Below, piece by piece: positions 32,607 to 64,000 of a stretch of DNA of 64,000 bases. The position numbers and the translations under genes were made by a program. The notes under the pieces are model-generated. The model made no database searches. It saw only the letters and a program-made list of their open reading frames with translations, and was not told the DNA's origin. Position 1 is the stretch's first letter; every line of letters begins with the position of its first letter. The stretch covers positions 11,332 to 75,331 of the forward strand of contig DUTP01000005.1 in assembly GCA_012842045.1 (NCBI GenBank), written 5' to 3'. Source of the DNA: Candidatus Dojkabacteria bacterium. GTDB taxonomy: Bacteria; Patescibacteriota; Dojkabacteria; SC72.

Positions 32607-33757
32607 TGGCAGAAGAAGAAAAAATAAAAGAGGAGAAAATTCAAGAAGAGAAACCTAAAAAAGAAAAACCAAAGAAGGAAGAACCTAGAGAGAAGCTTTT
32701 GAAAAAATTACAGGGAGTAAAGGTCTCTGTGCCAAACCTTTTAGTTTCTATAAAATCTTTAGCTTCATTACTTAAAGCTGGTATACCTCTCTCTGAAACA
32801 ATGGAAACCATTGCAGGCCAATCAAGCGATCAAAATCTTAATGCAGTATATGAGTATATCGCTGGAGAAGTCAGAAAAGGAGTCACATTAGCAGAAGCAA
32901 TGAAACTTTTCCCCAAGGTCTTTCCAGAAACAATTTCATCTGTAGTAGAAGCTGGTGAACAAGGTGGTTCTCTAGAACAAAACCTTATCTTCATCTCAGA
33001 TACAATTAAAAAAGAATGGGAAATTAACAAGAAGTTAAAAGGTGCAATTATCTACCCTATTATTATCGTTTGTATGGTTTTCATGGTTTTCCTTGCCATG
33101 ATATTTATCGTATTCCCAAAGTTAGAGACAATGTTTGCAGCTTTTGAAAATATTCCTGCGTTTACACAAGCAATTTTAAGTATTTCCAGATATATTCGAG
33201 CAAATTGGTATTTTATCTTTGGTGGTGTTGGTGTTCTGGTAGTACTTTTTATAGTTTTCTTAAAAACAAAACCCGGGAAAAAATTTAAAGGTTGGCTTGG
33301 GATTAACTTCCCTATTCTTAAAAATCTCTTCATCAACAACATTCTATCCTCTTTCTCAAGAACTCTGAGTGTGTTGCTAGCAAGTGGTATACCTATCGCT
33401 AAGTCTATGAAAATTGCAGCAAACACAACAAGTAACTATATCTATGCAGAGGTGTTAGAAGATGTATACAAGAGTATAGAAGCTGGTGATTCGCTATCTC
33501 TTTCATTAGGAAAGCATCCGAAATATTTTAATAAATCTTTTATTAAAATGGTTGAAATAGGAGAAGCCAGTGGATCATTAGAAGACAATCTTATGTACCT
33601 ACATGAATATTATGCAGAAGAGGTCGGAGAGATGAGTGCAAATATCGTTACAGTTGTAGAACCTGTTCTACTCATCTTGGTAGGTCTTATCATCGGAAGC
33701 TTAGTAGTAACTATCCTCATGCCTATTTACCAATTAATGGGTTCTATCAATGCTTAA
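32606..33757 (+). CDS. pilC: Type IV pilus platform protein PilC (GspF family)
   Basis: Duplicated GspF domains with three TMs. Start overlaps the pilB stop (TAATGG). Confidence 0.85.
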   Translation: MAEEEKIKEEKIQEEKPKKEKPKKEEPREKLLKKLQGVKVSVPNLLVSIKSLASLLKAGIPLSETMETIAGQSSDQNLNAVYEYIAGEVRKGVTLAEAMKLFPKVFPETISSVVEAGEQGGSLEQNLIFISDTIKKEWEINKKLKGAIIYPIIIVCMVFMVFLAMIFIVFPKLETMFAAFENIPAFTQAILSISRYIRANWYFIFGGVGVLVVLFIVFLKTKPGKKFKGWLGINFPILKNLFINNILSSFSRTLSVLLASGIPIAKSMKIAANTTSNYIYAEVLEDVYKSIEAGDSLSLSLGKHPKYFNKSFIKMVEIGEASGSLEDNLMYLHEYYAEEVGEMSANIVTVVEPVLLILVGLIIGSLVVTILMPIYQLMGSINA

Positions 33758-34211
33758 AAAACATAACAAAGAAAAAAAACTAAAAGGATTCTCTCTTTTA
33801 GAAATAATTGTAACTGTAGGTATTCTACTTTTGTTTTCTGGAATAATATTTCCTTTTACAATTACTAAGATCAAGAGAACACAACTACAAAGTTATGCTT
33901 CAGAGATAGCTGCGGATATATATTTTCAACAACAAGAAGCTAGAAACAGAAACCAGCCCACTGGTGTTTTTCTTGAAAGTGGACAGTACACTCTTTTTAC
34001 AGGAGAGACTTATGCAACAGCTACAGAAAAAGACAAGAAAGAGCTCAAAAAAGGAACTTACTTATCATCCATTATGTTAAATGATGGAACTTCTATTCGT
34101 TTTGAGGGGAGTTCTTTTAAACCTCTGACATACGGGTCTTTTCTTTTAAGTAATGGGAGAAGTAGCGTCAAGATAGAGATAAATCAAGAAGGGTTAGTAG
34201 AGTATGAATAG
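33750..34211 (+). CDS. Pseudopilin / minor pilin (prepilin N-terminal motif)
   Basis: KKLKGFSLLEIIVTVGILLLFSGII is a class III signal peptide. Confidence 0.7.
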   Translation: MLKKHNKEKKLKGFSLLEIIVTVGILLLFSGIIFPFTITKIKRTQLQSYASEIAADIYFQQQEARNRNQPTGVFLESGQYTLFTGETYATATEKDKKELKKGTYLSSIMLNDGTSIRFEGSSFKPLTYGSFLLSNGRSSVKIEINQEGLVEYE

Positions 34212-36147
34212 TATTAGAAAGAAATACAAAGCATTTAGTCTAGCTGAATTAATTATAGCAGTAGCTATCTTCGGTTTAATTTCTGCTTTCTTGACACTAC
34301 TTGTGGTTGATTCAACAAGAGCATATGAAAACACATATGCTAGATCTAAAGCTACAAGTCTTGTAAAAGAGATATACTCTACTCTGAAATTGTTAAAAAC
34401 TGATAACTGGTTTGAAGTAACCAAGCATACAGGATTAGGACCTAAGCATTTAATATTCGAAGAAGGAGAGTACAAGATAGCTGATGGAGAAAAGGTTGAA
34501 GGCTTACTAACCTACTTCTTCACCGTTGATTTAGCACAGAGGGATACAGATGGAAAGATTGTAGAAGAAGGTGGTAATACTGACGCACATACAAGAGTAA
34601 TCTCTGTTAATATTAAATGGAAGGACAGGGTTGGTAAAGAACACGTTATAAATCCAAAACTCTATCTTAATGACTGGCATGTTAATACTTTCACCTTCAC
34701 TTCTATGGAAGATTTTCAGCCAGGTGGACATACTGACACAACGGCATCCGAGAGTTTTACTGGTGGTGAATTAAGATTACAATCAGTCTTCTATCCTAAC
34801 TGGTGCAGACCTGAGAGATCTATGAGTAGTTATGATATCCCAGGAGAAGCATATGCGAAATCAATATTCGCTGAAATTGGATATGCATATCTAGGAACGA
34901 GAGGTGGAGATGTTGGTGATCCTTTCACTAAATTAAGAATTGAAGGTGTTAACCCTACAACACTAACAGTAGAGGGAACATTCCAAGGATATCGTATTAA
35001 TGACATCTTCGTAGAAGGAGACTATGCATATCTCGCAACATCAGATGATGAGAAAGAGATTGTCATCTTAGATATCTCCTCAGTCCCTTACCAAGAGGTA
35101 GGACATGTAAATGCACCAGACCAATGGAATAATGATGCTAGGAGTGTGTTTGTAAAAGGTAATGTCGGATATCTAACACAGAGTACGTATGTAAGAAGTT
35201 TTGATTTATCCTCTAAAACAGGTTCTAGGCCTATTCTTAATAGCATATCTATCAGTCTTATCCCCTGGATAGCATCAGTCTCACAGATACATGTTAAAGA
35301 TAATTATCTTTATGCATCACTAGACTGGGACTGGTACGAATTAGCAATTCTTGATGTTAGTAATCCCAGTAAAATGAAGATACTCTCTAGAACAAGTGTA
35401 AACAATCAACAAGTATATGATATGTATGTTTCAGATGATGGAAACAGAGTGTATTTTGGAACAAACTACTCCTCAAGTGAACACGAATTTTTCATAATTG
35501 ACACAAGTGTAAAGAATATTAAATGTCCTATTATTGCATCTAGAAAAGTAGATATGACTGTTAGAGGTATATCTGTTGTTGAAGATGGAAATGTTGTTGT
35601 ATTAGTAGGGACATCAGGTCAAGAATATCAAGTATTTTCTATCACCGACGAAACAAATCCTGTAAAGTGTGGAGGTATGAGCATACCTTCTGGTGTCTAC
35701 GATATCCAATCTGTCCTAGATCCACAAGGGAATGCTTTCTCGTACATCTTAACCGGTGATAAACATCAAGAATTTACAATAATCAGGGGAGGTCCCGGAG
35801 GTGGAGATGAAGATACAGGTAATGGTTTTGTACCAACGGGAAGTTACATTTCTGCAATTCAGGATTCTAAAACTTCAAACTCCACTTATTATACATTAAG
35901 CATTCAAACAAACATCCCAGAAGGAACTCAAATGGGCATTCAGATAAGGATTGGTGATAGTCCAACTATGCAAGGTATACCATGGAAAGGTCCAGATGGA
36001 ACAAACGGAACATACTACTCCACAAGTGGCACTTACTCTTTACCACCAGGAACTAAAGGAAGATATTTCCAATACAAAGTAGACTTTACAGGTGATACTG
36101 TTAACTCACCAATGCTTGAAGAATTAATTATTAGCTATGAGAAATAA
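34204..36147 (+). CDS. Large minor pilin / pilus-tip protein (647 aa) with a prepilin N-terminus and a repeat-rich beta-propeller-like ectodomain
   Basis: KAFSLAELIIAVAIFGLISAFL prepilin motif. Downstream are repeated segments of the LVIVD/beta-propeller type (YAYLATSDDEKEIVILDIS, LYASLDWDWYELAILDVS, VYFGTNYSSSEHEFFIIDTS). Confidence 0.6.
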   Translation: MNSIRKKYKAFSLAELIIAVAIFGLISAFLTLLVVDSTRAYENTYARSKATSLVKEIYSTLKLLKTDNWFEVTKHTGLGPKHLIFEEGEYKIADGEKVEGLLTYFFTVDLAQRDTDGKIVEEGGNTDAHTRVISVNIKWKDRVGKEHVINPKLYLNDWHVNTFTFTSMEDFQPGGHTDTTASESFTGGELRLQSVFYPNWCRPERSMSSYDIPGEAYAKSIFAEIGYAYLGTRGGDVGDPFTKLRIEGVNPTTLTVEGTFQGYRINDIFVEGDYAYLATSDDEKEIVILDISSVPYQEVGHVNAPDQWNNDARSVFVKGNVGYLTQSTYVRSFDLSSKTGSRPILNSISISLIPWIASVSQIHVKDNYLYASLDWDWYELAILDVSNPSKMKILSRTSVNNQQVYDMYVSDDGNRVYFGTNYSSSEHEFFIIDTSVKNIKCPIIASRKVDMTVRGISVVEDGNVVVLVGTSGQEYQVFSITDETNPVKCGGMSIPSGVYDIQSVLDPQGNAFSYILTGDKHQEFTIIRGGPGGGDEDTGNGFVPTGSYISAIQDSKTSNSTYYTLSIQTNIPEGTQMGIQIRIGDSPTMQGIPWKGPDGTNGTYYSTSGTYSLPPGTKGRYFQYKVDFTGDTVNSPMLEELIISYEK

Positions 36148-36622
36148 AAAGAAGATCAAATTAAAAGGACTTACATTACTGGAGACACTACTCTATGTAG
36201 CTCTTTTCTCTATGATTCTCTTTGTAATTATAAACTTCATGCTTGGTACACAAGAAGCAACTAGAAGAAATATGCAAAGAAGCTCTGTTCACCAATCAGC
36301 ACAGTTTGTCAAACAACACTTCGATTACTCTTTTCAGAAGGTAATACAAGTAAGTGAAGGAAGTAGTATTTTTAATAATGATAATGGGAAATTAACATTA
36401 ATTTTCTCAGACACAAGTAAATCATATACAATCTCAAACAATAGGATATATTTTAATGATATTGCTATCACACCAAAAAACATATCTGCAACAAAATTAC
36501 ATTTTGAACCCATATATAGTAAGAAGGGTGTAGTCATGGCAATTAAAGTGTCGACAAAACTAGTAACTAAAAAAGACCCAAAGATATTTGAAGAGATAAC
36601 TTACCTTGCTGTTATTAGATAG
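36137..36622 (+). CDS. Pseudopilin / minor pilin
   Basis: LKGLTLLETLLYVALFSMILFVII is a prepilin-like N-terminus. Overlaps the upstream stop. Confidence 0.6.
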   Translation: MRNKKKIKLKGLTLLETLLYVALFSMILFVIINFMLGTQEATRRNMQRSSVHQSAQFVKQHFDYSFQKVIQVSEGSSIFNNDNGKLTLIFSDTSKSYTISNNRIYFNDIAITPKNISATKLHFEPIYSKKGVVMAIKVSTKLVTKKDPKIFEEITYLAVIR

Positions 36623-36625
36623 AAA

Positions 36626-37030
36626 ATGAAGAAAAGAGATAATAAACAACTCAAGAAAAATGGATATATTGCTCTAACAACAGTTTTAGTAATCATACCC
36701 CTACTCCTTGCAACAGGGATAGACTTAGCATACAGAAGTATAACGAATGCTCTTGTCAGCAAATTGGAGTTTGATCACAACATGTTAGAGGTAAATGCTG
36801 AATCTTGTTTAGAAGAAAGTGTTAGAAAGATAAAGTTTAATATTTTGTTTGAAGGAACATTGATAGTAGAACAACCAACATGGACTTGTAACTCTGTCAT
36901 ATCAAATAAACCAGGAGTAAGTGGTGTAAAGATAATAAATATACAGGCAAGTGATGGAAACCAGAATGTAGTATTACTTAATAAAGAATTAAATACAAAT
37001 ACAGATCCATTTGAAATCTCAAATATTTAA
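36626..37030 (+). CDS. Membrane-anchored pilus-associated protein (PilX/minor-pilin-like), hypothetical
   Basis: NGYIALTTVLVIIPLLLATG is an N-terminal hydrophobic helix. Operon position is between the pseudopilins and pilD. Confidence 0.4.
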   Translation: MKKRDNKQLKKNGYIALTTVLVIIPLLLATGIDLAYRSITNALVSKLEFDHNMLEVNAESCLEESVRKIKFNILFEGTLIVEQPTWTCNSVISNKPGVSGVKIINIQASDGNQNVVLLNKELNTNTDPFEISNI

Positions 37031-37622
37031 AAAAAAATTAAAGAAGGTTGATATTATTTTCATAGTTTGTTTTCTCCTTAGTGCTATATCTATACCTGTT
37101 GCCCTTTTTTTGAAGTCTAGCGATCTAAAGGGAATTCTTTTTTCAACCCTTCTACTAACTCCGTTATTTGGAGCTCTGTGGTATCTTGCATATTATGATT
37201 ACAAGAAGATGGAAGTTCAGCCTACTCTTTCTCTTGCTTTGATAATAGTTTTAGGAATTGTTAATATTTTAGCTTTCTTCTTTTGGAAGGATAATGAGTT
37301 TGGATATAATAATTTGTTGGGAGGTATTACTCTTGGTGTTATTTTTCAATTAATTGTTCTACTTACAAAAGAGAGGGGTCTAGGACAGGGAGATGTTAGA
37401 ATTGCAATTATATCTGGTTTATTAGTTGGTTTTGATGGTTTAACTCCTTGGTTATATATTACAATATTTTCTTCTTTGTTATATGGAATTATTATTGCTA
37501 TTAAGAGAAGAAAGTTTAGAGGTTTGAAAATACCGTTTGTACCTTTTATGGTGTTTGGGGTTGTTATTTTAATAATTTCTCATCTACACCTGACTCAAAT
37601 CCACTGTTTTGCCCAAATATAA
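37011..37622 (+). CDS. pilD: Prepilin peptidase (A24 family), short form lacking an N-terminal Zn-finger domain
   Basis: Polytopic. GLGQGDVRIAIISGLLVGF matches the catalytic (G)GGDVKL aspartate motif of A24 peptidases. Confidence 0.75.
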   Translation: MKSQIFKKKLKKVDIIFIVCFLLSAISIPVALFLKSSDLKGILFSTLLLTPLFGALWYLAYYDYKKMEVQPTLSLALIIVLGIVNILAFFFWKDNEFGYNNLLGGITLGVIFQLIVLLTKERGLGQGDVRIAIISGLLVGFDGLTPWLYITIFSSLLYGIIIAIKRRKFRGLKIPFVPFMVFGVVILIISHLHLTQIHCFAQI

Positions 37623-49891: not shown

Positions 49892-50575
49892 ATGAATATT
49901 TTAATTATAGAGAATTCTTACACTTTAGGACAGATTATGTCAAAAACATTAGATTCTTATGGATATAAAGTGAGTATAGATAATGATAGTTTTTCAAATA
50001 AGAAATTAGTTAAAAGAAAACTTTTTGATTTTGTTATTTTAAATACTAATTTAGGAGGAGAAAAGAGTTTTGAAATTTTAGATTTCATCATTGAAAACAG
50101 TCCTGAAACAAAAATTCTAGGTGTTTGTAATAAAGGGAGTTGGACTGAAAAAGTTTCTTTTCTTAATCATGGTGGTGATGATGTTTTAACATACCCTTTT
50201 CCAATACAGGAATTGTTAGCAAGGATACAATCTTTAACTAGAAGACCTAAAAGCTATATAGATCAAAATATTTCTTTAGGAGATTTAACTTTAGATTTAA
50301 ATACTAAAAGTATATATCGAGGTAATCAAGAAATAGAGGTGAGAAACAAAGAGTACGACCTTTTTGAATATTTAGTTAGAAATAAGGAAAGACCAATATC
50401 AAGATGTGAATTGTTAGACCATGTTTGGGATTTTAGAGATTATGTTGGTTCAAACACTATTGATGTACATGTAAATAGATTAAGAGAGAAATTAGAGGAT
50501 AAAGATATCATAGAAACAGTACACGGTGTTGGTTATGTAGTTAAAGATAGAGATACTGAAACTAAAGCATCATAG
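49892..50575 (+). CDS. OmpR/PhoB-family transcriptional regulator with a degenerate (phosphorylation-incompetent) receiver domain
   Basis: C-terminal winged helix: ...EIEVRNKEYDLFEYLVRNKERPISRCELLDHVWDF...IDVHVNRLREKLED...VHGVGYVV. The N-terminal receiver-like fold lacks the conserved residues: the DD pair is EN, the phospho-Asp position is Asn (FVILNTNL), and the conserved Lys is Tyr (GGDDVLTYPF). Confidence 0.65.
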   Translation: MNILIIENSYTLGQIMSKTLDSYGYKVSIDNDSFSNKKLVKRKLFDFVILNTNLGGEKSFEILDFIIENSPETKILGVCNKGSWTEKVSFLNHGGDDVLTYPFPIQELLARIQSLTRRPKSYIDQNISLGDLTLDLNTKSIYRGNQEIEVRNKEYDLFEYLVRNKERPISRCELLDHVWDFRDYVGSNTIDVHVNRLREKLEDKDIIETVHGVGYVVKDRDTETKAS

Positions 50576-51686
50576 GCATAACTAGATGTACAAACTCTTT
50601 ATCTCCTTCTATCTTAAACACTCCTGGTTTTACTGGATCTGTACATTCAAAAGATATCTCATCAGCATCTATATGATTTAAGATATCAGCAAGTAATCTT
50701 GCACTAAATGCAATCTTAAGATTCTCACCTTCAATATTTCCTTCAAATACACTCTGGTTTTTTCCTAAATCACTCTGTACTGCAGATAGTGTAATCTTCC
50801 CGTCTTTAGAATTAATATCTAAAATCATTTTGTTTCCTAAAACAGATCTAGCAATAATGTTTACAATTTTGAGAGAATTTAAGAAATCATCTCTCTTAAT
50901 AACACATTTTGTTGTAAAACCAGTTGGGATAATCTGTTTGTATTCTGGAAATTCACCATCAATTAATCTTGAAATAAGATCAACATCAGCTAATCTAAAC
51001 AATACCTGATTTTTATCTTCCAATAGATAGACATTAACCCATTCTTCATCAGTATCAAGTTCTGAAATAATATAAGTAAGCTCTTGAAAAGCTCTAACAG
51101 GTACTAAGAAACTCTTCTTTTCTCCACTCTTTTCAACCTTAAAACTTTGTTTAGATAGTCTTAAACCATCTGTTGCTACAAATGAAACGATATCATCATC
51201 AACTTCAACTTTAACACCTGTTAATACTGGTTTAATATCATCACCAGCAGCTGCAAAAGCTACTCTACTAACAGCTTGAACTATATCTGTTTTCTTAATC
51301 CTAACAAAAAACTTCTCTTTATCATCAATACTTGGAATATTTGGGAAATCATCTGACGGCATAGTATTAAAACTAGCATTGTTATTTGAAGTTGAAATAT
51401 CAAAATTTTGTTTATTTACTTCAATATCAACCTTTTCTTCAGGAATAGAGTTTACAAACTCTGATAATTGCTTAGCTGGTACTGTAATTTTCCCATCTTC
51501 TTGAATGTCAGCTCCTATCCAAGTACTTATACTTAATTCTAAATCTGTTGTTTTTAATTTAAGTTTACCTTTATCACTTTCAAAATAGATATTGCTAAGA
51601 ATAGGTAAACCTGGTTTAGATGTAACTATTCTGCTTACGATATTTAAATATTTTGAAAAAGTATCTTGATTACATGAGAACTTCAT
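50562..51686 (-). CDS. dnaN: DNA polymerase III beta subunit (sliding clamp)
   Basis: 374 aa with three-domain clamp organisation. N-terminus MKFSCNQDTFSKYLNIVSRIV. Positioned immediately downstream of dnaA. Confidence 0.9.
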   Translation of the reverse strand: MKFSCNQDTFSKYLNIVSRIVTSKPGLPILSNIYFESDKGKLKLKTTDLELSISTWIGADIQEDGKITVPAKQLSEFVNSIPEEKVDIEVNKQNFDISTSNNNASFNTMPSDDFPNIPSIDDKEKFFVRIKKTDIVQAVSRVAFAAAGDDIKPVLTGVKVEVDDDIVSFVATDGLRLSKQSFKVEKSGEKKSFLVPVRAFQELTYIISELDTDEEWVNVYLLEDKNQVLFRLADVDLISRLIDGEFPEYKQIIPTGFTTKCVIKRDDFLNSLKIVNIIARSVLGNKMILDINSKDGKITLSAVQSDLGKNQSVFEGNIEGENLKIAFSARLLADILNHIDADEISFECTDPVKPGVFKIEGDKEFVHLVMPMML

Positions 51687-52140: not shown

Positions 52141-53568
52141 TTAACTCCTTATCATATGTAAACAACTATCTAATTTTTCTCTAAAAATAGCATCCTCCCG
52201 CTCTTTCTTCTCTATTTTCTCATATGCATGAATAACTGTTGTATGATCTTTTCTATTAACTTCTCTTGCTACTCTTTCAAGAGGAAGTTCCAACTCTTTT
52301 CGTAGAATATACATAACAACCTGTCTACATTGTGCTACATATGCAGTTCTCCTATTCCCTTTAATCTCTGAAGGTTTTACATCAAAAACTTCAGATACTG
52401 CTGATATCACTTTTGCTGGTGTTATCTTCTTTCTCTTAGAATCTAAATCTATTTGTAACATTTTAGCTACATCTTCCTCTGTTGGTTTTAAACCAAGTTT
52501 GTAAAGAGAAACTACTTTTGTAAGTGCACCTTCAAGTTGCCTAATATCACTTTCAATATTTTTAGCTATTAACTCTAAATACTCTTCAGGTATTTTTGCA
52601 TCTTTTTCTTCTAAATTTTGTTTTAAGATAGCTAATCTTGTTTCATAATCAGGAGGTTGAATATCTGCAACCATACCACCCATAAATCTTGTTCTTAATC
52701 GATCTGTAATATTTTTAATCTCTTGTGGTGATCTATCAGAAGCTAAAACAATCTGTTTGTTTGTTTGATAAAGAGCATTAAATGTATGGAAAAGCTCTTC
52801 TTGTGTTCTTGGAAATTCTTCAACAAACTGTACATCATCAATAATTAAAAGATCTACAGTCCTATACTTATTCCTAAAATCTTCATTTCTTTTTGTTTTA
52901 ATAGAATCAACCATTTCATTAAGAAATTGTTCAATGGGTATATATACAACTTTTTTAGTTGGGTCATTCTTCAATACTTCATTACCAATTGCTTGCATTA
53001 AATGAGTTTTTCCTAAACCAGAGTTACCATAGAAGAAGACAGGGTTGTAAGCATTCCCTAAGTCTTTTACAACAGCTTCTGCTACAGCTTCTGCTAGTTC
53101 ATTACTTTTTCCTACAACAAAATTAGAAAAGAGATATTTAGGATTTAGATGTGCTTCTGCAGTTTTTTTCTCTAAAGTCTCTTGCTCCTTCTTAGATTCT
53201 GAGAAAAGATCCATGGTTTTGTTTTCTGTAGGGTCATGATATTCATATCCATCCTTCTCTTCTACTTTTCTTTGAACATTTATCTCAATTTCATAATTAG
53301 CACCAGTAACCTTCTTCAATGCTTGTCTTAAAGAAGCTTTGTAGTCTCTTAATATTTTCTCCTTCTTAAATTCAGAATCACAGGTAAATTGCACAATACC
53401 GTTTCCAATATTTTCAATATATACATCATTAAACAAACTTAAAAACACTCTATTACCAAGCATTAATTTGAGATGTTCTTTGGTCATTTTCCATACCTCA
53501 TCAGTATTAACATCTTCTTGTGTTTGTTGAATATTTTTGAAGTATCCTTTAAAGTCTGCCTTGTTCAT
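52141..53568 (-). CDS. dnaA: Chromosomal replication initiator protein DnaA
   Basis: AAA+ Walker A (FYGNSGLGKTHLMQAIGNE), Walker B (LLIIDDVQF) and the C-terminal DnaA-box-binding HTH (…HTTVIHAYEKI). Confidence 0.95.
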   Translation of the reverse strand: MNKADFKGYFKNIQQTQEDVNTDEVWKMTKEHLKLMLGNRVFLSLFNDVYIENIGNGIVQFTCDSEFKKEKILRDYKASLRQALKKVTGANYEIEINVQRKVEEKDGYEYHDPTENKTMDLFSESKKEQETLEKKTAEAHLNPKYLFSNFVVGKSNELAEAVAEAVVKDLGNAYNPVFFYGNSGLGKTHLMQAIGNEVLKNDPTKKVVYIPIEQFLNEMVDSIKTKRNEDFRNKYRTVDLLIIDDVQFVEEFPRTQEELFHTFNALYQTNKQIVLASDRSPQEIKNITDRLRTRFMGGMVADIQPPDYETRLAILKQNLEEKDAKIPEEYLELIAKNIESDIRQLEGALTKVVSLYKLGLKPTEEDVAKMLQIDLDSKRKKITPAKVISAVSEVFDVKPSEIKGNRRTAYVAQCRQVVMYILRKELELPLERVAREVNRKDHTTVIHAYEKIEKKEREDAIFREKLDSCLHMIRS

Positions 53569-54689: not shown

Positions 54690-55202
54690 TTATGCCTTTA
54701 ATTTTTCTCTCAACTGGTTCATAAATATCATATATTCCCTATATGGTATCAATAAGCTAGAATATGATTTCTGGTTTGGTATAAAAATATTCTTTAATTT
54801 CTTCTTTTCTACTAAATATTCAATTAAGCATCTGTAATCACCGTCTCCAGAAACAATAATTGCTTTATCAAAATTATTTATTTCAATCATGGTATGTAGC
54901 ACTAGTTCAGCATCAATGTTTCCTTTAATTTTTCTTTTTCCTCTATCCTCTTTGTAAGTGATAGTAGGTTTAAAAATCAAAGTATATCCATAATTTTTTA
55001 GGTTGGTATACATTCTCTTGTTCTTTTTTATATAACCAATGAATAGAAAGGCTTTTTGAACTTTGTATTTATTTCTTAAATATACAAGAAACTTCTTAAG
55101 GTCTATTTCCCAACCAATATATTTATATTTTGGTATGTTCTTTTTTACACCTTGATACAAGTTATTGCTATCAATAAAAGCATAAATTTTTGTATTCTTC
55201 AT
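54690..55202 (-). CDS. NYN-domain (LabA/DUF88-like, PIN-fold) protein
   Basis: KIYAFIDSNNLYQG (first Asp), ...DAELVLHTMIE..., IVSGDGDYRCLIEYL (GDGD motif) are the NYN/LabA acidic residues. Confidence 0.7.
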   Translation of the reverse strand: MKNTKIYAFIDSNNLYQGVKKNIPKYKYIGWEIDLKKFLVYLRNKYKVQKAFLFIGYIKKNKRMYTNLKNYGYTLIFKPTITYKEDRGKRKIKGNIDAELVLHTMIEINNFDKAIIVSGDGDYRCLIEYLVEKKKLKNIFIPNQKSYSSLLIPYREYMIFMNQLREKLKA

Positions 55203-56735: not shown

Positions 56736-58142
56736 ATGAAATTGAAGAAACTTTCTAAAAAAGATGTTTTAACAATATCTTTGTTTTTAGTAGTTTTTCT
56801 TTTAACAATACCATTCGCTAAAGAATCCATAGGTAGATTTCTTGTTATTGAAACCTTTGTTCTTCTTTATCTAATAATATTTCTTTTTTATAGAAGCACG
56901 TTTCTTTCTTTTGTATTTTTACTATTTCTAGTACTACCATTCAATATCACATATCAGATACCTATACCTGTAGAACAAAGTATGTCTAACGGTTTGATAG
57001 TTAACTACTTAATTCCTACAATCTCCGTTTTAGATTTAGTTGTAGGAATATTCTTAACATCAGTATTTTTGCAAGAAGGTTTAGCTTTCTTTAAAAAAGT
57101 GTGTGGAAAATATAGACTAGGTTTGATTATATTTTTTGTTTTTCTTCTAATTCAAAATGTTTTTCTACAAAACTTATTAAGTATTTTAAACAGTGTAAGA
57201 CTATTCTCATATCTTTTAGCATTCATTTTGATATTAGAAAAATTTCCAATTAAGAAAAAAGTAATCTCCCCTACCCTGTTTTCAGTTCCCATCTTGTTTT
57301 CAGTGCTAGTCCAAGGAATTATCGGTTTAAAACAATTTGTAAGAGGAGTTTCTTTAGGTTGGAATTTTCTGGGAGAATCTCAAGTTTCAACTACAATGCT
57401 TGGTTCTAGTTTTATTAGTTTAAACTCAGGGTCTTTCCTTAGAGCTTACGGTACGTTCCCACACCCTAATGTTTTAGGAGGTTTTTTTCTTCTAACTTTT
57501 TTTGCTTCACTTTTTCTTTTTAAGATATCAAAAGGAAAGAAAAAATTTATTCCGATTATTACAATGATTCTCTCTGTAGGTTTTTCCTTTTTAACATTCT
57601 CAAGAACAGTTATAGTCCTCTTTCTTTTAGTACTGTTTGTATTATTAATTAAAAAAATCTTTGTTAAGAAAAAGATTAATAGTTTTTTACCTACGATTTT
57701 GTTTGAGAGATTTTTTCAAGGATTTAAAGAGATGGATAATAGTTTGGTTGATAGGAGAAATTTAATTAAATCTAGCTATATTGTTTTTAAGGAAAACTTT
57801 CTTTTGGGTACAGGGTTAGGCAATTTTGTTCGAGAGATGGGGATAAATGCACCTAAGACTGTAAAGGGGATGTCTTTGATGCAACCTGTACATAATGTTT
57901 TTTTGCTTTTATTATGTGAATTCGGTGTGTTTGGATTTTTATCTTTTCTGTTTTTAATATTTGATATTTTAAGGAAGAACATTAAGAGAGTGACTCTTTT
58001 TGGAGTCTTAATTTGCTTGGTTGTAATTAGTATTAGCTTAGTAGATCACTATTTCATATCCATACCTCAAGGTTTGATAATGTTTTTAACTATGTTCTCT
58101 CTTATAGTTTTTGAATCAAAAGCAAGGAGGTTGTTGAAGTGA
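56736..58142 (+). CDS. O-antigen ligase/polymerase-like (Wzy_C-type) polytopic membrane protein
   Basis: About 12 TMs with a central extracytoplasmic loop containing LRAYGTFPHPNVLGGFFLLTF, typical of the O-antigen ligase family. Confidence 0.55.
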   Translation: MKLKKLSKKDVLTISLFLVVFLLTIPFAKESIGRFLVIETFVLLYLIIFLFYRSTFLSFVFLLFLVLPFNITYQIPIPVEQSMSNGLIVNYLIPTISVLDLVVGIFLTSVFLQEGLAFFKKVCGKYRLGLIIFFVFLLIQNVFLQNLLSILNSVRLFSYLLAFILILEKFPIKKKVISPTLFSVPILFSVLVQGIIGLKQFVRGVSLGWNFLGESQVSTTMLGSSFISLNSGSFLRAYGTFPHPNVLGGFFLLTFFASLFLFKISKGKKKFIPIITMILSVGFSFLTFSRTVIVLFLLVLFVLLIKKIFVKKKINSFLPTILFERFFQGFKEMDNSLVDRRNLIKSSYIVFKENFLLGTGLGNFVREMGINAPKTVKGMSLMQPVHNVFLLLLCEFGVFGFLSFLFLIFDILRKNIKRVTLFGVLICLVVISISLVDHYFISIPQGLIMFLTMFSLIVFESKARRLLK

Positions 58143-58232
58143 TGGCGGAGAGAGTGGGATTCGAACCCACGGTATGATTACTCATACGAACGCTTTCCAA
58201 GCGTTTCCTTTCGACCACTCAGGCATCTCTCC
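58143..58232 (-). tRNA. tRNA-Ser (anticodon GGA), long variable arm, CCA encoded
   Basis: Reverse strand reads GGAGAGAUGCCUGAGUGGUCGAAAGGAAACGCUUGGAAAGCGUUCGUAUGAGUAAUCAUACCGUGGGUUCGAAUCCCACUCUCUCCGCCA. Anticodon loop UUGGAAA. Confidence 0.85.
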
Positions 58233-58294
58233 AGAGCGTGAGAATTTTATCAAAAATTATTGATTTAATCTAGTAGGTGTGGTAGTTTGTAGGT

Positions 58295-58996
58295 ATGAAA
58301 AAACTGCTTAGCTTCATATTTTTTATCATACTTCTATTTTTCATTTTTACAGGAACAAAACAGATTTTTGTTGGAGCAAAGAGTTTTTTTAGCAAGTATA
58401 AGGAGGAGATAGTGGAAGAAGATTTGTCTAATATTGCTATTCAAAAGAAAAAGATTGAAAAAAAGAAGAAGGTTGAAGGTGTTATGGTTCCTCGTTATTG
58501 GAAGAATGGAGTTCAGGCAGAAGAGAATGATTACTTGAAAGGTTATGTTCCTTCTATTAGAGAATTTCAGAAGTATATCGCAATTAAGGACAATATTCTG
58601 TACGGAAGTGTTGAGGGAGTTGAAATGTTTCCTGATAGGAAACATTTATTATCGATGTTAACAAAAGCTAATACCATTTTCGTAGAAGGAATGGCAAATG
58701 AAAACAGCTATTTTGACTGGTCAGATGAAAATTGCTCTGTGTTTGAAAACGGTTTTGAAGGAGAGAAGATTTTTGTTTGTGATAATTGGGTAAATTGGAT
58801 GAAAAGAAAGATAGATGAGCCGTTTTTTGTTCTTACAGATTGTCGGATTGGTAATGAAATAGGAAAATGTGTATTTTTAGACTACACTAATGTATACTTT
58901 TTAGAGAAGAAGATTGAAGAAACTAGGTGTATGTCAAAAGAGTATGCTGAAGTATGTAAGGTTGAGAATTATAGAGAGAAAATTAGATATAAATAA
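58295..58996 (+). CDS. Hypothetical secreted/membrane-anchored protein (233 aa)
   Basis: N-terminal signal/anchor (LLSFIFFIILLFFIFTGT). The mature part has several Cys. No motif recognised. Confidence 0.4.
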   Translation: MKKLLSFIFFIILLFFIFTGTKQIFVGAKSFFSKYKEEIVEEDLSNIAIQKKKIEKKKKVEGVMVPRYWKNGVQAEENDYLKGYVPSIREFQKYIAIKDNILYGSVEGVEMFPDRKHLLSMLTKANTIFVEGMANENSYFDWSDENCSVFENGFEGEKIFVCDNWVNWMKRKIDEPFFVLTDCRIGNEIGKCVFLDYTNVYFLEKKIEETRCMSKEYAEVCKVENYREKIRYK

Positions 58997-59013
58997 ATTT
59001 TGAAAACTGTCCT

Positions 59014-60912
59014 ATGAAGAAAGCTTTAAGAGCTCTACTCCTCTCCTTTTTACTTCTTTTTACTTTTACAGGGGCATCTTTCGCAGCAGAAGAAAATAGT
59101 GTTGAGGCTAAAAACTGTATAGATATGGAGGCGTATTACGATGAGGTTAAAAACTCTAGCCAGGCACTAACAGGAGAGTCTCAAAGTTTTGATTCTATTA
59201 GAAGAACTGAAATGCTGACTACATTTTTAGATATTATCAGTGTTTTTGTTGGAGATGGAATTTACTGTATAAAGGACGAAACTGCAGCTGCAAAAACAAC
59301 AGCTTTTGAGTCTGATGGGCTTATTGGAATGTTGGAAAGTGGTAGTACATCTTTACTTGCAAATCTTCCGTATGTGGGGGTTGCAGACCACTTAGCCCAA
59401 GAGTTTGTCCCTGGCTATAAAGAGAACAACTCTGTTATGGCTATTGATGATGGTACTAGTACGGCTCCTGAAACCTGTTTCGACCCTTCTGGAGGTATGT
59501 GTCCTTGTGAAAAGAGTGTTTGTAGTGAATGCACTACTGATGAAGGTGAAGTATGTACCAACGAAGAACCTGAGTCTGGTAAGTGTGTTTTTAGAGGAAC
59601 AGATAAAACCTGTGCTTGTAATTCAGATCCAAGGTGTATTTCTGCAGAGGAAGCAAAGGGTGCTGAAACTGCTGGTGGTGTAGGAGAAAAGATTCGGGAA
59701 TGGATTTTAGATGCAATGTCAAAATATCTGGGTCTTGGTGGAATAGACTATAGGAAAATGAAGGAAGATGCTGCTCAGGCTGTAGAGGATAAAAGTGGTT
59801 TTGAGTATTTACATGAAAGTATTAGACTTAGTGCACTTTGGTCAGTTACACGCAATATTGCCTACTTGTTCTTTGTCATAGCCATGATAATCATAGGTTT
59901 TATGATTATGTTCAGGAACAAGATAGGTGGTCAGGTAATGGTCACAGTAAGTAATTCAATACCCCGCATAATAGTTTGCTTGATACTAGTAACATTTAGT
60001 TTTGCGATATCTGGCATCATGCTTGATCTTGGTAAGATGGCTATGAATATTGTTAGTAAAACTATGGCTAAGGCTCAGTATGAGGTGACAGGAGAGCCTG
60101 TTGCTAGTGTAGATATAGCCGGTGTTGGAAACCTCATGGACAGGGCGGTTTACGAATTGGAGGAAGGCGATAGAATTAGTTTAGATATTGCAGAAGATTC
60201 TAAAACAGAAGAAGAATTGAACGAGATTCTAAAAAAAGCTCATTATGATGAAATAGAAAATGACGATTCCTGGGTGGGTAAAGCAAAGAGTACTGCAGTT
60301 AAAATTTTATTACGTGCAAATCTGTCTCTTTTAACACATGCTCTAAAAGGGGCAAGAATAAGTGTTCCTTTTTTGGATATTGTAAAGAACATTGTTATAA
60401 CAGGGCTTGTAGAGATTCCTAACTTTTCTCGACTTCTTAAATCTGTACTTTTTCTCTTGATCGCGGCATTTGCCTCTTTTAAATTATTTATTACGATACT
60501 AACATCGTATGCTAAGATTTTTGTAAATGTTGTCCTGGGCCCTATTCAGATAGCTATGGGAGCAATACCTGGTAATTTTAATTCTGTCACTAGGTGGTTT
60601 AAAACAATCCTTTCAAATGTTCTCGTTTTTCCTACTATAGTTGCAATCCTTGAATTTGCGAAGTTTTTTGCATTGGCTATTAGGCCTGAAAAGTTTGTGT
60701 TCTTTGGTCAATCAGGAGTGTTTTTACCTGACGGCTTTATTAGTATAGGTGGGGTATTTTTCATAGCAGGTTATTTCTTTGCAGCCAATGCCCCAAATCT
60801 CATTAAGGGGATTATAAAAGTTGAAGAGGATAAAACAATGACAGCCGCAGGTGCTTCCGTTAAGGAGAGTATGTCGAAACTTCCTCTAATAGGTGGTATG
60901 TTTGGTAAATAA
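59014..60912 (+). CDS. Large secreted polytopic membrane protein, paralog 1 (signal peptide, Cys-rich ectodomain, ~6 C-terminal TMs)
   Basis: Signal peptide (…TGASFA/AEEN). Cys-rich ectodomain (…CPCEKSVCSECTTDEGEVCTNEEPESGKCVFRGTDKTCACNSDPRCI). Multi-TM C-terminal half ending ...KVEEDKTMTAAGASVKESMSKLPLIGGMFGK. Paralogous to 60935..63634. Confidence 0.5.
   Translation: MKKALRALLLSFLLLFTFTGASFAAEENSVEAKNCIDMEAYYDEVKNSSQALTGESQSFDSIRRTEMLTTFLDIISVFVGDGIYCIKDETAAAKTTAFESDGLIGMLESGSTSLLANLPYVGVADHLAQEFVPGYKENNSVMAIDDGTSTAPETCFDPSGGMCPCEKSVCSECTTDEGEVCTNEEPESGKCVFRGTDKTCACNSDPRCISAEEAKGAETAGGVGEKIREWILDAMSKYLGLGGIDYRKMKEDAAQAVEDKSGFEYLHESIRLSALWSVTRNIAYLFFVIAMIIIGFMIMFRNKIGGQVMVTVSNSIPRIIVCLILVTFSFAISGIMLDLGKMAMNIVSKTMAKAQYEVTGEPVASVDIAGVGNLMDRAVYELEEGDRISLDIAEDSKTEEELNEILKKAHYDEIENDDSWVGKAKSTAVKILLRANLSLLTHALKGARISVPFLDIVKNIVITGLVEIPNFSRLLKSVLFLLIAAFASFKLFITILTSYAKIFVNVVLGPIQIAMGAIPGNFNSVTRWFKTILSNVLVFPTIVAILEFAKFFALAIRPEKFVFFGQSGVFLPDGFISIGGVFFIAGYFFAANAPNLIKGIIKVEEDKTMTAAGASVKESMSKLPLIGGMFGK
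59794..60059 (+). repeat. 266-bp near-identical DNA segment shared by the two paralogs (copy 1)
   Basis: Read directly: copy 1 and copy 2 (62471..62736) differ at roughly 10 positions. Flanking DNA is much more diverged even where the proteins align. Confidence 0.85.
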
Positions 60913-60934
60913 AAATAAGTTTTGAAATAATTTT

Positions 60935-63634
60935 ATGAAGAAAATTCTGAATATCTTACTTCTATCTACACTTTTTCTTCTCTCTTCTTTCAGGGTTTCA
61001 TTTGCCGAGGAGTCAAAAATTATTAAAGAACAAAATGGAGGTGTGTGTATTGATCTGGCTGCATATTACGAAGCAGCTAATATGACCAGTCAAGCACTTA
61101 CAGGAAAAGAACAAAGTCCTCTTGCAACTAAAAAAGCTAGAAATATAGCGACACTGACAAATATAATTGGAATTTTAATGGGAGATAGTATTTATTGTGT
61201 TAATGATGGGGAAGCTGCTTCTAAAACAAAGATGTTGAAAAACCACGGAATTCTAGGTGCTTTAAATGGTTCTACCTATGCATTACTTGCAAGTACTCCT
61301 ACGGTTAGGGTTGGTGATCATTTAGCTCAAGAATTTATACCTGGTTATGGGGATAATAACAGGGCTTCTGCTGCAGATAAATATGTTTGGAATGACAATA
61401 ACTACGTATATTATTCAAACTTAGAAAAGGAGGTTAAGTGTGGAGATCTTCAAGGTATTGATATAGATGTATATAATTTCTTCAAGAATGATAAAAGATG
61501 TAAGAACAAAAAAATAGTAAATATCGAAAAGGGTTTGGGGGAAATAAATAAAGAAGATTTTGATGATCATTGTGGTGATAAGGAAAACTTAAGTATTGAA
61601 CACCAAAATTGTTTTTGGGACTATGTTGGTTATCCAGCTGATAAGAAGCTAGTGTGTGTGACTAATGCGTGGGGTAGAGAAAACTGTTCAATGGAGCCAG
61701 TAGGTGTGTGGGATAGTGTATGTTTAAATACATGTTTTGATGGTAACCATCAAGCTTATTTTCAAGCTTATTTGGATCTAGCCCATACTGAAGTAGAACC
61801 TCCAGTTGAAGGGTCTGAATGTCCTGAATATTGTGAGGTATGTGAAGACGTACCAGGACAAAATTTTAGAGATCTCGGTGACAGTGTGTTGGCATATAAT
61901 GGGGAGGGAAGAGATAAAGGAACTCAAGGAGGAACAATGCTTCAGTTAACACAGCAGGAACGCTTTGAGGCTGATCAGTGTGTTAAAAAATTAAAGGATG
62001 GTAATAGTTATAATAACTATTTAAACCTATTGAAAGAATTGGGCGTTGATTGGCAAGAAGGAGATAGTTATTGCTTTTCAAATAATTGGAATTCGCTAAC
62101 TGGTGCATCGGAAGCTGATTGTACACCACACTTTTCTAATGCAGATGTAGATTACTGTATACAAACATATTGTGAAACTGAAGCTTACAGAAAGGCAAAA
62201 GAAAACGAAGTAAGATGTGGTCGTCCGAATGTCAGTTTTTTCTTGGTACAACCAGATAAGTATTATGCAAGTGAATTAGAATGTCAGGCCGATCAAGAAC
62301 AGCGAGAAGAAGAAGTAGAACTCATGCAAGAGGCTATAGATTATAACACAAGCAATATGCTTGATAAATGGAAACAATGGTTGATAAATCAGATATTAAG
62401 TTATTTAGGTTTCGGTACAATAGACTACGCTGCGCTGGATGCACAAGCTCAACAAGCGGCAAACCAAGTTAGTGGTTTTGAGTATTTACATGAAAGTATT
62501 AGACTTAGTGCACTTTGGTCAATCACACGCAATATTGCCTACTTGTTCTTTGTCATAGCCATGATAATCATAGGTTTTATGATTATGTTCAGGAACAAGA
62601 TAGGTGGTCAGGTTATGGTCACAGTAAGTAATTCAATACCCCGCATAATAGTTTGCTTGATACTAGTAACATTTAGTTTTGCGATATCCGGCATCATGCT
62701 TGACCTAGGTAAGATGGCCATGAATGTTGTTAGTAATCGTATGCTTGAAGTTACGAATGAAGTCAAGGTAACAGGGACATCCGTTGATAAGGTAGATTTG
62801 GGTAGCATTGCAAATCTAACAGACCAGCTTTTGTATAAAGCACAACCTCAAGAAACGTCTGTTTTCTCAGGAAGGAACTATGAGGATGAAGTGGGGAAGG
62901 CTATAGATACTAACTTAAATGAGGAGGCGGGAAGAAGTAGGACATCTGCAAAATGGGTAGGTGAAACATCTAGTGTGATAATGAAAATATTTTTAAGATT
63001 AGGGGGCGCATTTTTACTTGGTTCCGCAAGGCAGGCAGATCTTTCTCCTGATGTGTTAACTTTTTTAGCACCCCTATCAGCGCTTGTCTTATCATGGATA
63101 AATCTTGGTTGGAAGCTGTTAATTATTGCATTTCAAATACCGAACTACTCTAGATTACTGAAATTGATAATCTTTTTAATTGTTGCTGTTGTTGCCTCTT
63201 TCAAGCTTTTTGTCACAATAATAACCACATATATTAAAATCTTTGCCAATGTTGTCCTTGGTCCCATCCAAATAGCTATGGGAGCAATACCTGGTAATTT
63301 TGGTTCTGTGGGTAGGTGGTTTAAATCATTAATTGCCAATATTTTAGTTTTCCCTACCATAGCTACTATCTTAGGTTTTGCTCAATTCTTTGCAGCTGCA
63401 ATAGAACCCCAAAAGTTTGTTTTCTTTGGTCAACAGGGGGTCTTCCTCCCCGATGGTATTATTACGATGCAGGGGGTGTTTCTAATAGCTGGTTGTTTTT
63501 TCGCAGCAACTGCACCGAATTTAATTAAAGGAGTTATTAAAATAGAGGAAGACAAAACCATGGCTGCTGCTGGTGATTCTATTAAAAAGAGTATGTCAAA
63601 GATTCCTATGATAGGGGGTATATTTGGTAAGTAA
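60935..63634 (+). CDS. Large secreted polytopic membrane protein, paralog 2, with an additional ~270-aa Cys-rich insert
   Basis: Same architecture and collinear similarity to paralog 1 across the N-terminal region and the multi-TM C-terminal half, which ends ...KIEEDKTMAAAGDSIKKSMSKIPMIGGIFGK. Confidence 0.5.
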   Translation: MKKILNILLLSTLFLLSSFRVSFAEESKIIKEQNGGVCIDLAAYYEAANMTSQALTGKEQSPLATKKARNIATLTNIIGILMGDSIYCVNDGEAASKTKMLKNHGILGALNGSTYALLASTPTVRVGDHLAQEFIPGYGDNNRASAADKYVWNDNNYVYYSNLEKEVKCGDLQGIDIDVYNFFKNDKRCKNKKIVNIEKGLGEINKEDFDDHCGDKENLSIEHQNCFWDYVGYPADKKLVCVTNAWGRENCSMEPVGVWDSVCLNTCFDGNHQAYFQAYLDLAHTEVEPPVEGSECPEYCEVCEDVPGQNFRDLGDSVLAYNGEGRDKGTQGGTMLQLTQQERFEADQCVKKLKDGNSYNNYLNLLKELGVDWQEGDSYCFSNNWNSLTGASEADCTPHFSNADVDYCIQTYCETEAYRKAKENEVRCGRPNVSFFLVQPDKYYASELECQADQEQREEEVELMQEAIDYNTSNMLDKWKQWLINQILSYLGFGTIDYAALDAQAQQAANQVSGFEYLHESIRLSALWSITRNIAYLFFVIAMIIIGFMIMFRNKIGGQVMVTVSNSIPRIIVCLILVTFSFAISGIMLDLGKMAMNVVSNRMLEVTNEVKVTGTSVDKVDLGSIANLTDQLLYKAQPQETSVFSGRNYEDEVGKAIDTNLNEEAGRSRTSAKWVGETSSVIMKIFLRLGGAFLLGSARQADLSPDVLTFLAPLSALVLSWINLGWKLLIIAFQIPNYSRLLKLIIFLIVAVVASFKLFVTIITTYIKIFANVVLGPIQIAMGAIPGNFGSVGRWFKSLIANILVFPTIATILGFAQFFAAAIEPQKFVFFGQQGVFLPDGIITMQGVFLIAGCFFAATAPNLIKGVIKIEEDKTMAAAGDSIKKSMSKIPMIGGIFGK
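62471..62736 (+). repeat. 266-bp near-identical DNA segment shared by the two paralogs (copy 2)
   Basis: See copy 1. Confidence 0.85.
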
Positions 63635-63650
63635 ATATACATATTTAATT

Positions 63651-64000
63651 ATGAATAAAAGACAACAACAAAAAAGTGTATACGATTCCGTTTTCGACTT
63701 TATCTTTTCTGTGCAACAGTCTGGAGAAAATAAACCTTTTCCTAAACCCCCCTCCTCTGCTGGTGTATATGCATCTTCTCTAATAGAAATAGGAACACAA
63801 CCAGCAATATATCCACTGGAATCTGCTTTTAGAACAATAAATGGGTATGTTGAGGGTCAAACACAGGTAGATCTAGGAGATGGTGTGTCTGTTAGTATGG
63901 GTTCTATCTTAAGAGGAGAAGGTAATAAAGATATAAAGAAGGAAATTTCTAAAAACAGAGCACGGGCTAATTTTGCCAGAATAGGAGGAAACTTACACTC
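63651..64000 (+). CDS. Hypothetical protein, N-terminal fragment running off the right edge of the window
   Basis: ATG at 63651 (MNKRQQQKSVYDSVFDFIFSVQQSGENKPFPKPP...). The frame is open to the end of the window. Confidence 0.3.
   Translation, partial: MNKRQQQKSVYDSVFDFIFSVQQSGENKPFPKPPSSAGVYASSLIEIGTQPAIYPLESAFRTINGYVEGQTQVDLGDGVSVSMGSILRGEGNKDIKKEISKNRARANFARIGGNLH

Follow-up and report, generated by a model that had tools for sequence, protein, structure and literature searches.

A near-identical membrane-hairpin segment shared by diverged tandem paralogs of a Dojkabacteria membrane-protein family points to recurrent gene conversion

What keeps one short internal segment almost identical in two neighboring genes that are otherwise heavily diverged? 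The question is raised by a tandem pair of genes for polytopic membrane proteins, located in a 64,000-nucleotide stretch of DNA from a Candidatus Dojkabacteria bacterium (contig DUTP01000005.1, positions 11,332 to 75,331 of the forward strand). This whole stretch is termed the window, and positions are numbered from its first letter. The first open reading frame (ORF), paralog 1, occupies positions 59014-60912 of the plus strand and encodes 632 amino acids; the second, paralog 2, lies at 60935-63634 on the same strand and encodes 899 amino acids. The original prediction had described an internal 266-bp stretch of ~96% identity between the two, amid diverged neighboring codons, and had interpreted it as segmental gene conversion between genes with variable ectodomains.

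The two copies of the block, at 59794-60059 and 62471-62736, are indeed 266 bp long and differ at eight positions, i.e., they share 97.0% identity. The block boundaries were defined by a repeat finder and by a maximal-segment scan on a protein-guided codon alignment; the repeat search returned a direct repeat at 59794-60086 / 62471-62763, with a spacing of 2677 bp. The remaining 1615 aligned nucleotides of the paralogs are only 55.7% identical, such that divergence is far from uniform along the alignment and a bounded block of identity stands out from its background. When the match/mismatch string was shuffled 2000 times, the observed segment score was never reached. Six of the eight mismatches fall at third codon positions, and the mismatches are concentrated at the 3' end. 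Among codons that specify the same amino acid in both paralogs, the third base is identical in 81 of 86 cases inside the block versus 127 of 238 outside (Fisher p = 2e-13). Synonymous divergence (dS, Nei-Gojobori) between the paralogs is 0.12 in the block, compared to 1.9 in the N-terminal domain, 1.3 in the loop that follows the block and 1.66 in the C-terminal half. The ratio of nonsynonymous to synonymous divergence (dN/dS) within the block is 0.02-0.04.

The segment concerned (codons 261-349 of paralog 1 and 513-601 of paralog 2) encodes, in order, a pre-membrane helix, a first transmembrane helix (TM1), a short RNKIGGQ turn, a second transmembrane helix (TM2) and the beginning of the next helix. 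In the predicted model of paralog 1, the corresponding helices (residues 262-269, 273-299, 306-327 and 329-359) are modeled with a predicted local distance difference test score (pLDDT) of 88-96. Conservation across the protein family peaks in the block as well, with most of the invariant columns at positions 262-338.

Comparable blocks were observed in related genomes. Locus L001, on a 750,790-bp Dojkabacteria contig, represents a near-identical strain, and loci L002, L003 and L004 represent a more distant lineage. Within each genome the two copies are 99-100% identical (308 bp with two mismatches in L001; 230 bp with two mismatches in L002), while between genomes the DNA identity of the block is 83-85% for the window versus L001 and 73-78% for the window versus L002. 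The paralogs thus differ in the block by a dS of 0.12 in the window, 0.00 in L001 and 0.056 in L002, versus 1.06-2.07 in the other regions of the three genomes, and the enrichment of identical third bases is significant in all three (Fisher p from 2e-13 to 5e-20). By contrast, the window and L001 blocks differ from each other by a dS of 0.88-1.09 and a dN of 0.02-0.03. In all three lineages, the 5' edge of the block falls where the conserved protein segment begins, while the 3' edge varies by 10-16 codons. In an additional locus, L128, which shares 99.6% identity with 3.9 kb of the window, the paralog 1 codon at 59845-59847 is in the paralog-2 state (on a single contig of 1.5x coverage), which may be a sign of continuing recombination at the block. 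A metagenome scan for further alleles of the window lineage yielded distant relatives almost exclusively.

The different parts of the genes have different histories in bootstrapped neighbor-joining trees. The N-terminal domain clusters by gene position (bootstrap 0.93-0.99), and the duplication therefore predates the window, L001 and L002 lineages. The block, however, clusters by genome (1.00). In the C-terminal half, the four genes of the window and L001 cluster together (0.94-0.95), which suggests an older and larger homogenization of this region in their common lineage. Two independent tandem pairs from other lineages, L021 and L093, served as controls: in the same segment, their paralogs share 87-97% of the amino acids, their DNA is 79-86% identical and the same-codon fraction is 0.5-0.65. 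Constraint on the protein therefore accounts for ~80% DNA identity, and not for 97-100%.

The low synonymous divergence of the block (versus more than 1 in its flanks), its genome-wise tree and the control pairs all argue for segmental conversion between the paralogs, as originally predicted. We consider it roughly 85-90% probable that recurrent gene conversion keeps the block near-identical, the putative tract being confined to the first two membrane helices, i.e., ~85 codons. In the explanation that we favor, the tandem duplication would be older than the split of the window and L002 lineages, and the extracytoplasmic parts of the proteins would since have diverged to saturation, while one copy would time and again have replaced the other in the segment comprising TM1, the cytoplasmic turn and TM2. 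The process would be a non-reciprocal homologous recombination, i.e., intrachromosomal gene conversion between direct repeats, presumably of the RecA type. Purifying selection on the segment would preserve the similarity of the DNA and hence enough identity for recombination to start, and the flanks, encoding fast-evolving extracytoplasmic parts, would be too diverged for the tracts to extend. Recombination within the conserved core, halted by the diverged flanks, would explain why the position of the block does not shift from lineage to lineage, and why its 5' edge is sharp and its 3' edge ragged. The C-terminal half would have been homogenized once, earlier, in the window/L001 lineage. Identical hairpins may in addition be selected, e.g., so that both paralogs fit into one oligomer. 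The complete account, which combines tandem duplicates, recurrent conversion and the replacement of alleles between strains (see below), appears very probable.

Several points weigh against this account. The evidence for the block consists of assembled contigs. De Bruijn bubble popping can raise the identity of near-repeats, and the loop between direct repeats can be skipped during assembly; the 100% block values and the chimeric contigs described in the next paragraph may be partly artefactual.

A more elaborate explanation would be a program of variation, in which the block acts as a recombination anchor that combines the N-terminal ectodomain of one gene with the loop and C-terminal half of the other, or fuses the pair into a single chimeric gene, thereby altering interactions with hosts or phages. 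The observations closest to such a program are the single genes found in L125 and L126 (JGI 3300009674 and 3300025762). Apart from lacking precisely the 2484 bp that separate the blocks, these contigs match L002, with one mismatch in the 5.9 kb to the left and none in the 7.1 kb to the right. The resulting chimeric gene of 618 amino acids (L125 4933-6789; L126 1687-3543; compare L002 10650-13452) joins the N-terminal half of gene 1 to the C-terminal half of gene 2, and its junction lies inside a 188-bp exact stretch of the block. The exposed parts of the proteins are also hypervariable between strains, and tandem variable surface components of type IV secretion systems (T4SS) have precedents in Bartonella and Anaplasma. 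The chimeric contigs, however, could be loop-skipping misassemblies, and both datasets, judging from their numbering, may be assemblies of one sample. The odds are roughly even that the chimera represents a real crossover deletion or an assembler that skipped the loop between exact repeats longer than k. It is treated here as unproven, because the repeat interrupts two other assemblies of the L002 strain (L087 begins within it, at a position equivalent to L002 10870, and L004 ends within it, at the equivalent of L002 13377). Furthermore, neither a reciprocal product nor silent cassettes nor a dedicated recombinase were found in the cassette of genes to which the pair belongs, and an ordinary RecA-dependent deletion between 188-bp repeats would suffice without any program, which we therefore consider unlikely.

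The likeness to antigenically variable families, which the original prediction had drawn, was not sustained either. In cassette-type antigenic variation, as in pilE/pilS, vlsE and msp2, a single expression locus is accompanied by silent, partial donor cassettes, and conversion generates diversity by acting on the variable, exposed region. Here, both genes are full-length ORFs with start codons and signal peptides, and no third copy of the block was found in the 64-kb window. Nor is it the variable ectodomain that is converted: the tract covers the conserved TM1-turn-TM2 segment and erases differences, while the variable regions are saturated between the paralogs. The locus is thus not assigned to the cassette type, since both genes are complete, silent donors are lacking and the tract homogenizes a conserved part.

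The same breaks in the L002-strain contigs, which imply that short-read assemblers cross the repeat unreliably, bear on the idea that the block itself is an artefact, produced by collapse or consensus merging of copies that are really more diverged. The exact repeats exceed the usual k-mer sizes, and most of the data are short-read metagenome assemblies. The window copies, however, have not been collapsed, since eight differences between them were retained; lineage-specific blocks occur in the window, L001 and L002-L004 contigs from several samples; and assemblers cannot turn ~80% identity into 97-100% over 230-308 bp with the flanks left intact. We therefore consider an artefact very unlikely as the source of the block. 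The repeat nevertheless carries a practical warning, in that exact repeats of 188-308 bp break or mis-join short-read assemblies at the cassette locus. One further candidate for a truncated or chimeric allele, P0002 (388 amino acids, on a 1358-bp ENA contig), was rejected as a chimeric contig broken at the repeat: its match to paralog 1 ends at residue 312, within the block, and is followed by unrelated sequence that ends in GRASCRERV, which we take to be a translated sequencing adapter.

An embedded DNA or RNA element, e.g., a structured RNA or a regulatory or recombinase site, might likewise conserve the block, and would fit the fact that the same position is affected in three lineages. Such an element is highly improbable, however, because the synonymous sites of the block differ between lineages (dS of 0.88-1.09 for the window versus L001) and Rfam matches only a tRNA in the region 58000-64000; scans for promoter-like and terminator-like sites revealed no enrichment. 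Finally, extreme purifying selection on the protein alone, without recombination, agrees with the status of the segment as the most conserved of the family and with its low dN/dS, but is scarcely credible in view of the identity at synonymous third positions and the block dS of 0-0.12 versus more than 1 in the flanks, the divergence of orthologous blocks in near-identical strains (dS 0.88), which also excludes codon choice fixed by some nucleotide-level function, and the independent tandem pairs, which reach only 79-86% DNA identity under equal protein constraint.

A second layer of recombination was apparent on comparison of the window with the near-identical strain L001, over a shared region of ~13 kb. 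From dnaN to the first half of paralog 1, the two are mostly ~96-100% identical per 100-bp bin, with a few bins at 0.91-0.95. The DNA identity then dips to 59-87% at 59700-60480, to 40-67% at 61400-62000 and to 65-93% at 62400-63350, and these hyperdivergent patches have a dS of 0.8-1.5. The largest difference, with a dS of 1.5, resides in the insert of paralog 2 (the second dip); the variable loop of paralog 1 is 59-79% identical. In paralog 1, the dS between the orthologs is 0.015 for codons 1-210 and 0.05 for codons 491-632, versus 0.85-0.94 for codons 211-490. The parts replaced between the strains thus comprise the Cys-rich linker or insert, the block and the loop that follows. The patchiness of the divergence indicates that the central parts of both genes are swapped for divergent alleles by inter-strain homologous recombination, and makes the cassette a hypervariable island at strain level. 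As a cause of the strain divergence, positive selection on point mutations was considered and rejected, given an ortholog dN/dS of 0.03-0.23 (paralog 1 codons 211-490) together with a high dS. After an allele replacement, the block would have been made identical again between the paralogs of each genome, or would already have been so within the donor.

Most of the architecture that had originally been described for the two proteins was confirmed, although "giant" overstates their lengths. Both carry a signal-like hydrophobic N-terminal segment and, by hydropathy, five to six hydrophobic segments in the C-terminal half, and they share the tail ...EEDKTM.AAG.S.K.SMSK.P.IGG.FGK. Paralog 1 consists of a signal peptide, a helical N-terminal ectodomain, a short Cys-rich linker (59449-59676, plus strand, codons 146-221; 10 Cys at residues 155-208) and a membrane core. 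The linker is presumably extracytoplasmic, and residues 136-221 of the predicted model have a pLDDT below 50. Paralog 2 has the same architecture with an additional Cys-rich ectodomain insert of ~267 amino acids (61370-62374, plus strand, codons ~146-480, including alignment gaps; 18 Cys at residues 169-450). The block is followed in each protein by a variable helical loop (60061-60423, codons 350-470, in paralog 1 and 62738-63154 in paralog 2, both on the plus strand), which in paralog 1 is likewise probably extracytoplasmic; its amino-acid identity between the paralogs is 10-40%, with a dN/dS of 0.54-0.67. The conserved C-terminal membrane halves (60424-60909 and 63155-63631, plus strand; in paralog 1, ~4 hydrophobic segments and the conserved tail) are 57-83% identical in amino acids, in alignment windows starting from 60403; in the sliding window that starts at 60373, the identity is only 0.40. 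The topology would place the ectodomains outside and the RNKIGGQ turn inside the cell.

The paralogs belong to a large family without a sequence model that is specific to Dojkabacteria and other Patescibacteria. In total, 4089 representatives of 50%-identity clusters were collected at E <= 1e-3. Pfam and NCBIfam scans of both paralogs and their neighbors yielded nothing above threshold, and a profile search of PDB sequences with the family gave no match. The predicted fold is closest to those of DotA and TrwI/VirB6 (Foldseek E 9e-3, TM-score 0.26-0.48, i.e., moderate), namely TrwI/VirB6 of R388 (PDB 7O3V, 8RT9 and 8RTD) and DotA of the Legionella Dot/Icm system (PDB 9NGY), at a sequence identity of 10-14%. 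The original prediction had noted a resemblance to VirB6/TrbL-like components of T4SS and had proposed a search with the corresponding profiles. That search gave no significant match to PF04610 (TrbL/VirB6): neither window protein matches, six of 67 relatives match below threshold (best E 0.0049), and none of 10 distant family representatives provides a bridge. Comparison of the family profile with R388 TrwI alone in hhalign gave no signal, and comparison with a 34-sequence TrwI profile gave a probability of 0.2. Moreover, no ORF resembling R388 VirB4, the R388 type IV coupling protein or the DUF87 protein of the window was detected within 5-10 kb in ~125 loci, by phmmer only and thus with limited sensitivity. 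The only T4SS-type ATPase seen in the window (10629-13136, minus strand, 835 amino acids, DUF87 and T4SS-DNA_transf domains, Walker A motif GQTGTGKS) is located 46 kb away.

The resemblance to VirB6/TrbL thus holds for the predicted fold and for the polytopic layout with an ectodomain, but not for a PF04610 match or for linkage to VirB4. Because the sequence tests and the linkage fail, the proteins are named VirB6/DotA-like in predicted fold and not members of TrbL/VirB6. That they serve as a VirB6/DotA-like channel or stalk subunit in the membrane, used in contact with host bacteria, is, in our estimation, about an even bet. Against it, the structural similarity rests on a predicted model of moderate score, all of the sequence tests were negative and VirB4 is not encoded nearby. 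A bolder proposal, that the family is the missing, extremely diverged VirB6/DotA-type channel subunit in an origin-proximal cassette of its own, and that the interchangeable hairpin shared by the duplicated clade is a crossover point for chimeras and foreign ectodomain alleles, is offered tentatively and is rather doubtful.

The genomic setting of the pair is conserved. The cassette comprises a gene for a protein of 233 amino acids, the family gene or genes and a gene for ~680 amino acids. The first of these (58295-58996, plus strand) encodes an N-terminal membrane anchor (hydrophobic residues 3-21) and six conserved Cys. In 19 of the scanned species loci (L005-L019, L094, L123 and L127), the long-form family gene follows it immediately, and the same order holds for the family gene in L001-L004, L125, L126 and L128. 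Just nine homolog clusters of this protein were found, and it has no Pfam or NCBIfam match. A VirB8-like fold was considered for it and set aside, as the AF2 model was unusable (pLDDT 47, from a 10-sequence alignment). Paralogs 1 and 2 are separated by 22 bp, and a spacing of 16 bp is also present among the cassette genes. The downstream partner of ~680 amino acids starts at 63651 on the plus strand, and the window ends inside the gene, at 64000. This gene directly follows the long-form family gene in every scanned locus that reaches that far. Its ortholog in L001 has 684 amino acids and a C-terminal membrane anchor but lacks a Walker A motif, and no Pfam match was found for the partner.

Upstream of the cassette are dnaN and dnaA, followed by rpmH, rnpA, yidD, an NYN gene, yidC, jag, a Wzy_C protein gene and tRNA-Ser; beyond it are a PilM-like gene and then RNase J. 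The window contains the likely replication origin, since dnaN (50562-51686, minus strand) and dnaA (52141-53568, minus strand) face rpmH-rnpA-yidD and the cumulative GC skew reaches its lowest point at about 52-54 kb. Some neighbors vary: the NYN-domain gene (54690-55202, minus strand) separates yidD from yidC in the window and L001 but not in L002, while a Na_Ca_ex gene (L002 8189-9097, minus strand) is inserted between Wzy_C and the cassette in L002 and is absent there in the window. The tRNA-Ser(GGA) gene (58143-58232, minus strand) lies between the Wzy_C gene and the cassette. L128 matches the window from 58142 on; upstream of the tRNA, at L128 977-4592, it carries a helix-turn-helix gene, a Phage_rep_O gene and a gene for a large serine recombinase of 561 amino acids instead of Wzy_C. 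The region may belong to an element integrated at the tRNA of a sister strain; alternatively, the contig, of 1.5x coverage, may be chimeric.

The number of family genes per locus is one or two only. A single family gene was found in the cassette in all 15 complete long-form Dojkabacteria species loci of the genome scan (L005-L017, L019 and L094), and in L018 the family gene is truncated or frameshifted. The tandem pair at the cassette is restricted to the clade of the window, L001 and L002, with independent pairs in L021 and L093. Single cassette genes of 737 and 702 amino acids occur in the related lineages L123 (6001-8214) and L127 (833-2941), respectively; their N-terminal domain groups with the paralog-2 type at a bootstrap of merely 0.36-0.79, which could reflect loss of the paralog-1 copy or another duplication history. 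A short form of the family (~445 amino acids) is encoded at another site of the genome, in a further conserved operon, and the downstream partner of the short form has an N-terminal motif in common with the ~680-amino-acid gene product. In the genome of L001 (L085 6155-16305), a family member of 443 amino acids is flanked by proteins of 666 (fn3-type), 485, 899, 336 and 391 amino acids, and this operon is conserved in 38-65 loci. Its protein of 899 amino acids shares an N-terminal motif with the ~680-amino-acid partner of the long-form cassette (BLASTP E 4e-4). Elsewhere in the window, a type IV pilus operon (31191-37622, plus strand) encodes a T2SSE ATPase (31191-32606), a T2SSF platform protein (32606-33757) and an N_methyl/LVIVD pseudopilin-like protein of 647 amino acids (34204-36147), with small ORFs after it.

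Tandem paralogs are a textbook setting for gene conversion, such that the mechanism is not new; the protein family is unstudied. By analogy, the nearest precedent is the Trw T4SS of Bartonella, for which concerted evolution and diversifying selection are reported in the tandem trwJ-trwI-trwH (VirB5-VirB6-VirB7) and trwL genes (PMC2610397, citing Nystedt et al. 2008, Mol Biol Evol 25:287). As far as that account goes, the two systems have in common tandem paralogs that include VirB6-type proteins, partial homogenization, diversification of the exposed parts and a suggested relation of the variation to host contact. In contrast, the Bartonella genes are bona fide TrbL/VirB6 in a complete VirB-type operon of a diderm, whereas here the similarity is at fold level only, in a three-gene cassette without VirB4 in Patescibacteria, and the conversion tract would be a single membrane hairpin of ~85 codons. 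The virB6-1 to virB6-4 genes of Anaplasma phagocytophilum are adjacent VirB6 genes with large variable extensions (PMC3556328). Like the present pair, they are enlarged by non-membrane domains and differ between strains in presumably exposed parts. Their variation, however, is mainly in the number of internal tandem repeats, their membrane cores are recognizable by sequence as VirB6, and the passages on their variation describe no conversion between copies (PMC3556328). Unlike TrwI/VirB6 and DotA, the present family gives no profile-level signal, and VirB5/IcmX, VirB4 or other T4SS partners were not recognized adjacent to it.

In Patescibacteria, T4SS genes are located near the origin, close to dnaA, dnaN, rnpA and rpmH (PMC12102498), and the cassette is similarly origin-proximal. 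VirB6 homologs are scarce or absent in some patescibacterial classes (Microgenomatia and Gracilibacteria), for which extreme divergence has been suggested; Dojkabacteria are unmentioned in this context (PMC12102498). Most of the VirB6 homologs in that survey adjoin virB4, whereas the Dojkabacteria family does not. A parallel to the putative crossover product is provided by evolution experiments in E. coli, in which chimeric genes formed by deletion between paralogs (PMC13626634). The putative hybrid of the pair in L125 and L126 resembles these chimeras in that it would stem from a deletion between homologous segments; the E. coli chimeras were demonstrated experimentally, whereas the L125/L126 hybrid is known from metagenome assemblies alone.

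The locus thus provides an unusually clean natural example, in which three lineages each have their own homogenized block, accompanied by negative-control pairs and a possible crossover product. It also flags a large, unannotated family of patescibacterial membrane proteins beside the origin, with a VirB6/DotA-like predicted fold. A hypervariable island in otherwise ~96-100% identical genomes is the pattern expected of a structure that touches hosts or phages. If the bolder proposal were true, the import of foreign ectodomains and the formation of chimeras would amount to strain-level variation of the host-contact apparatus.

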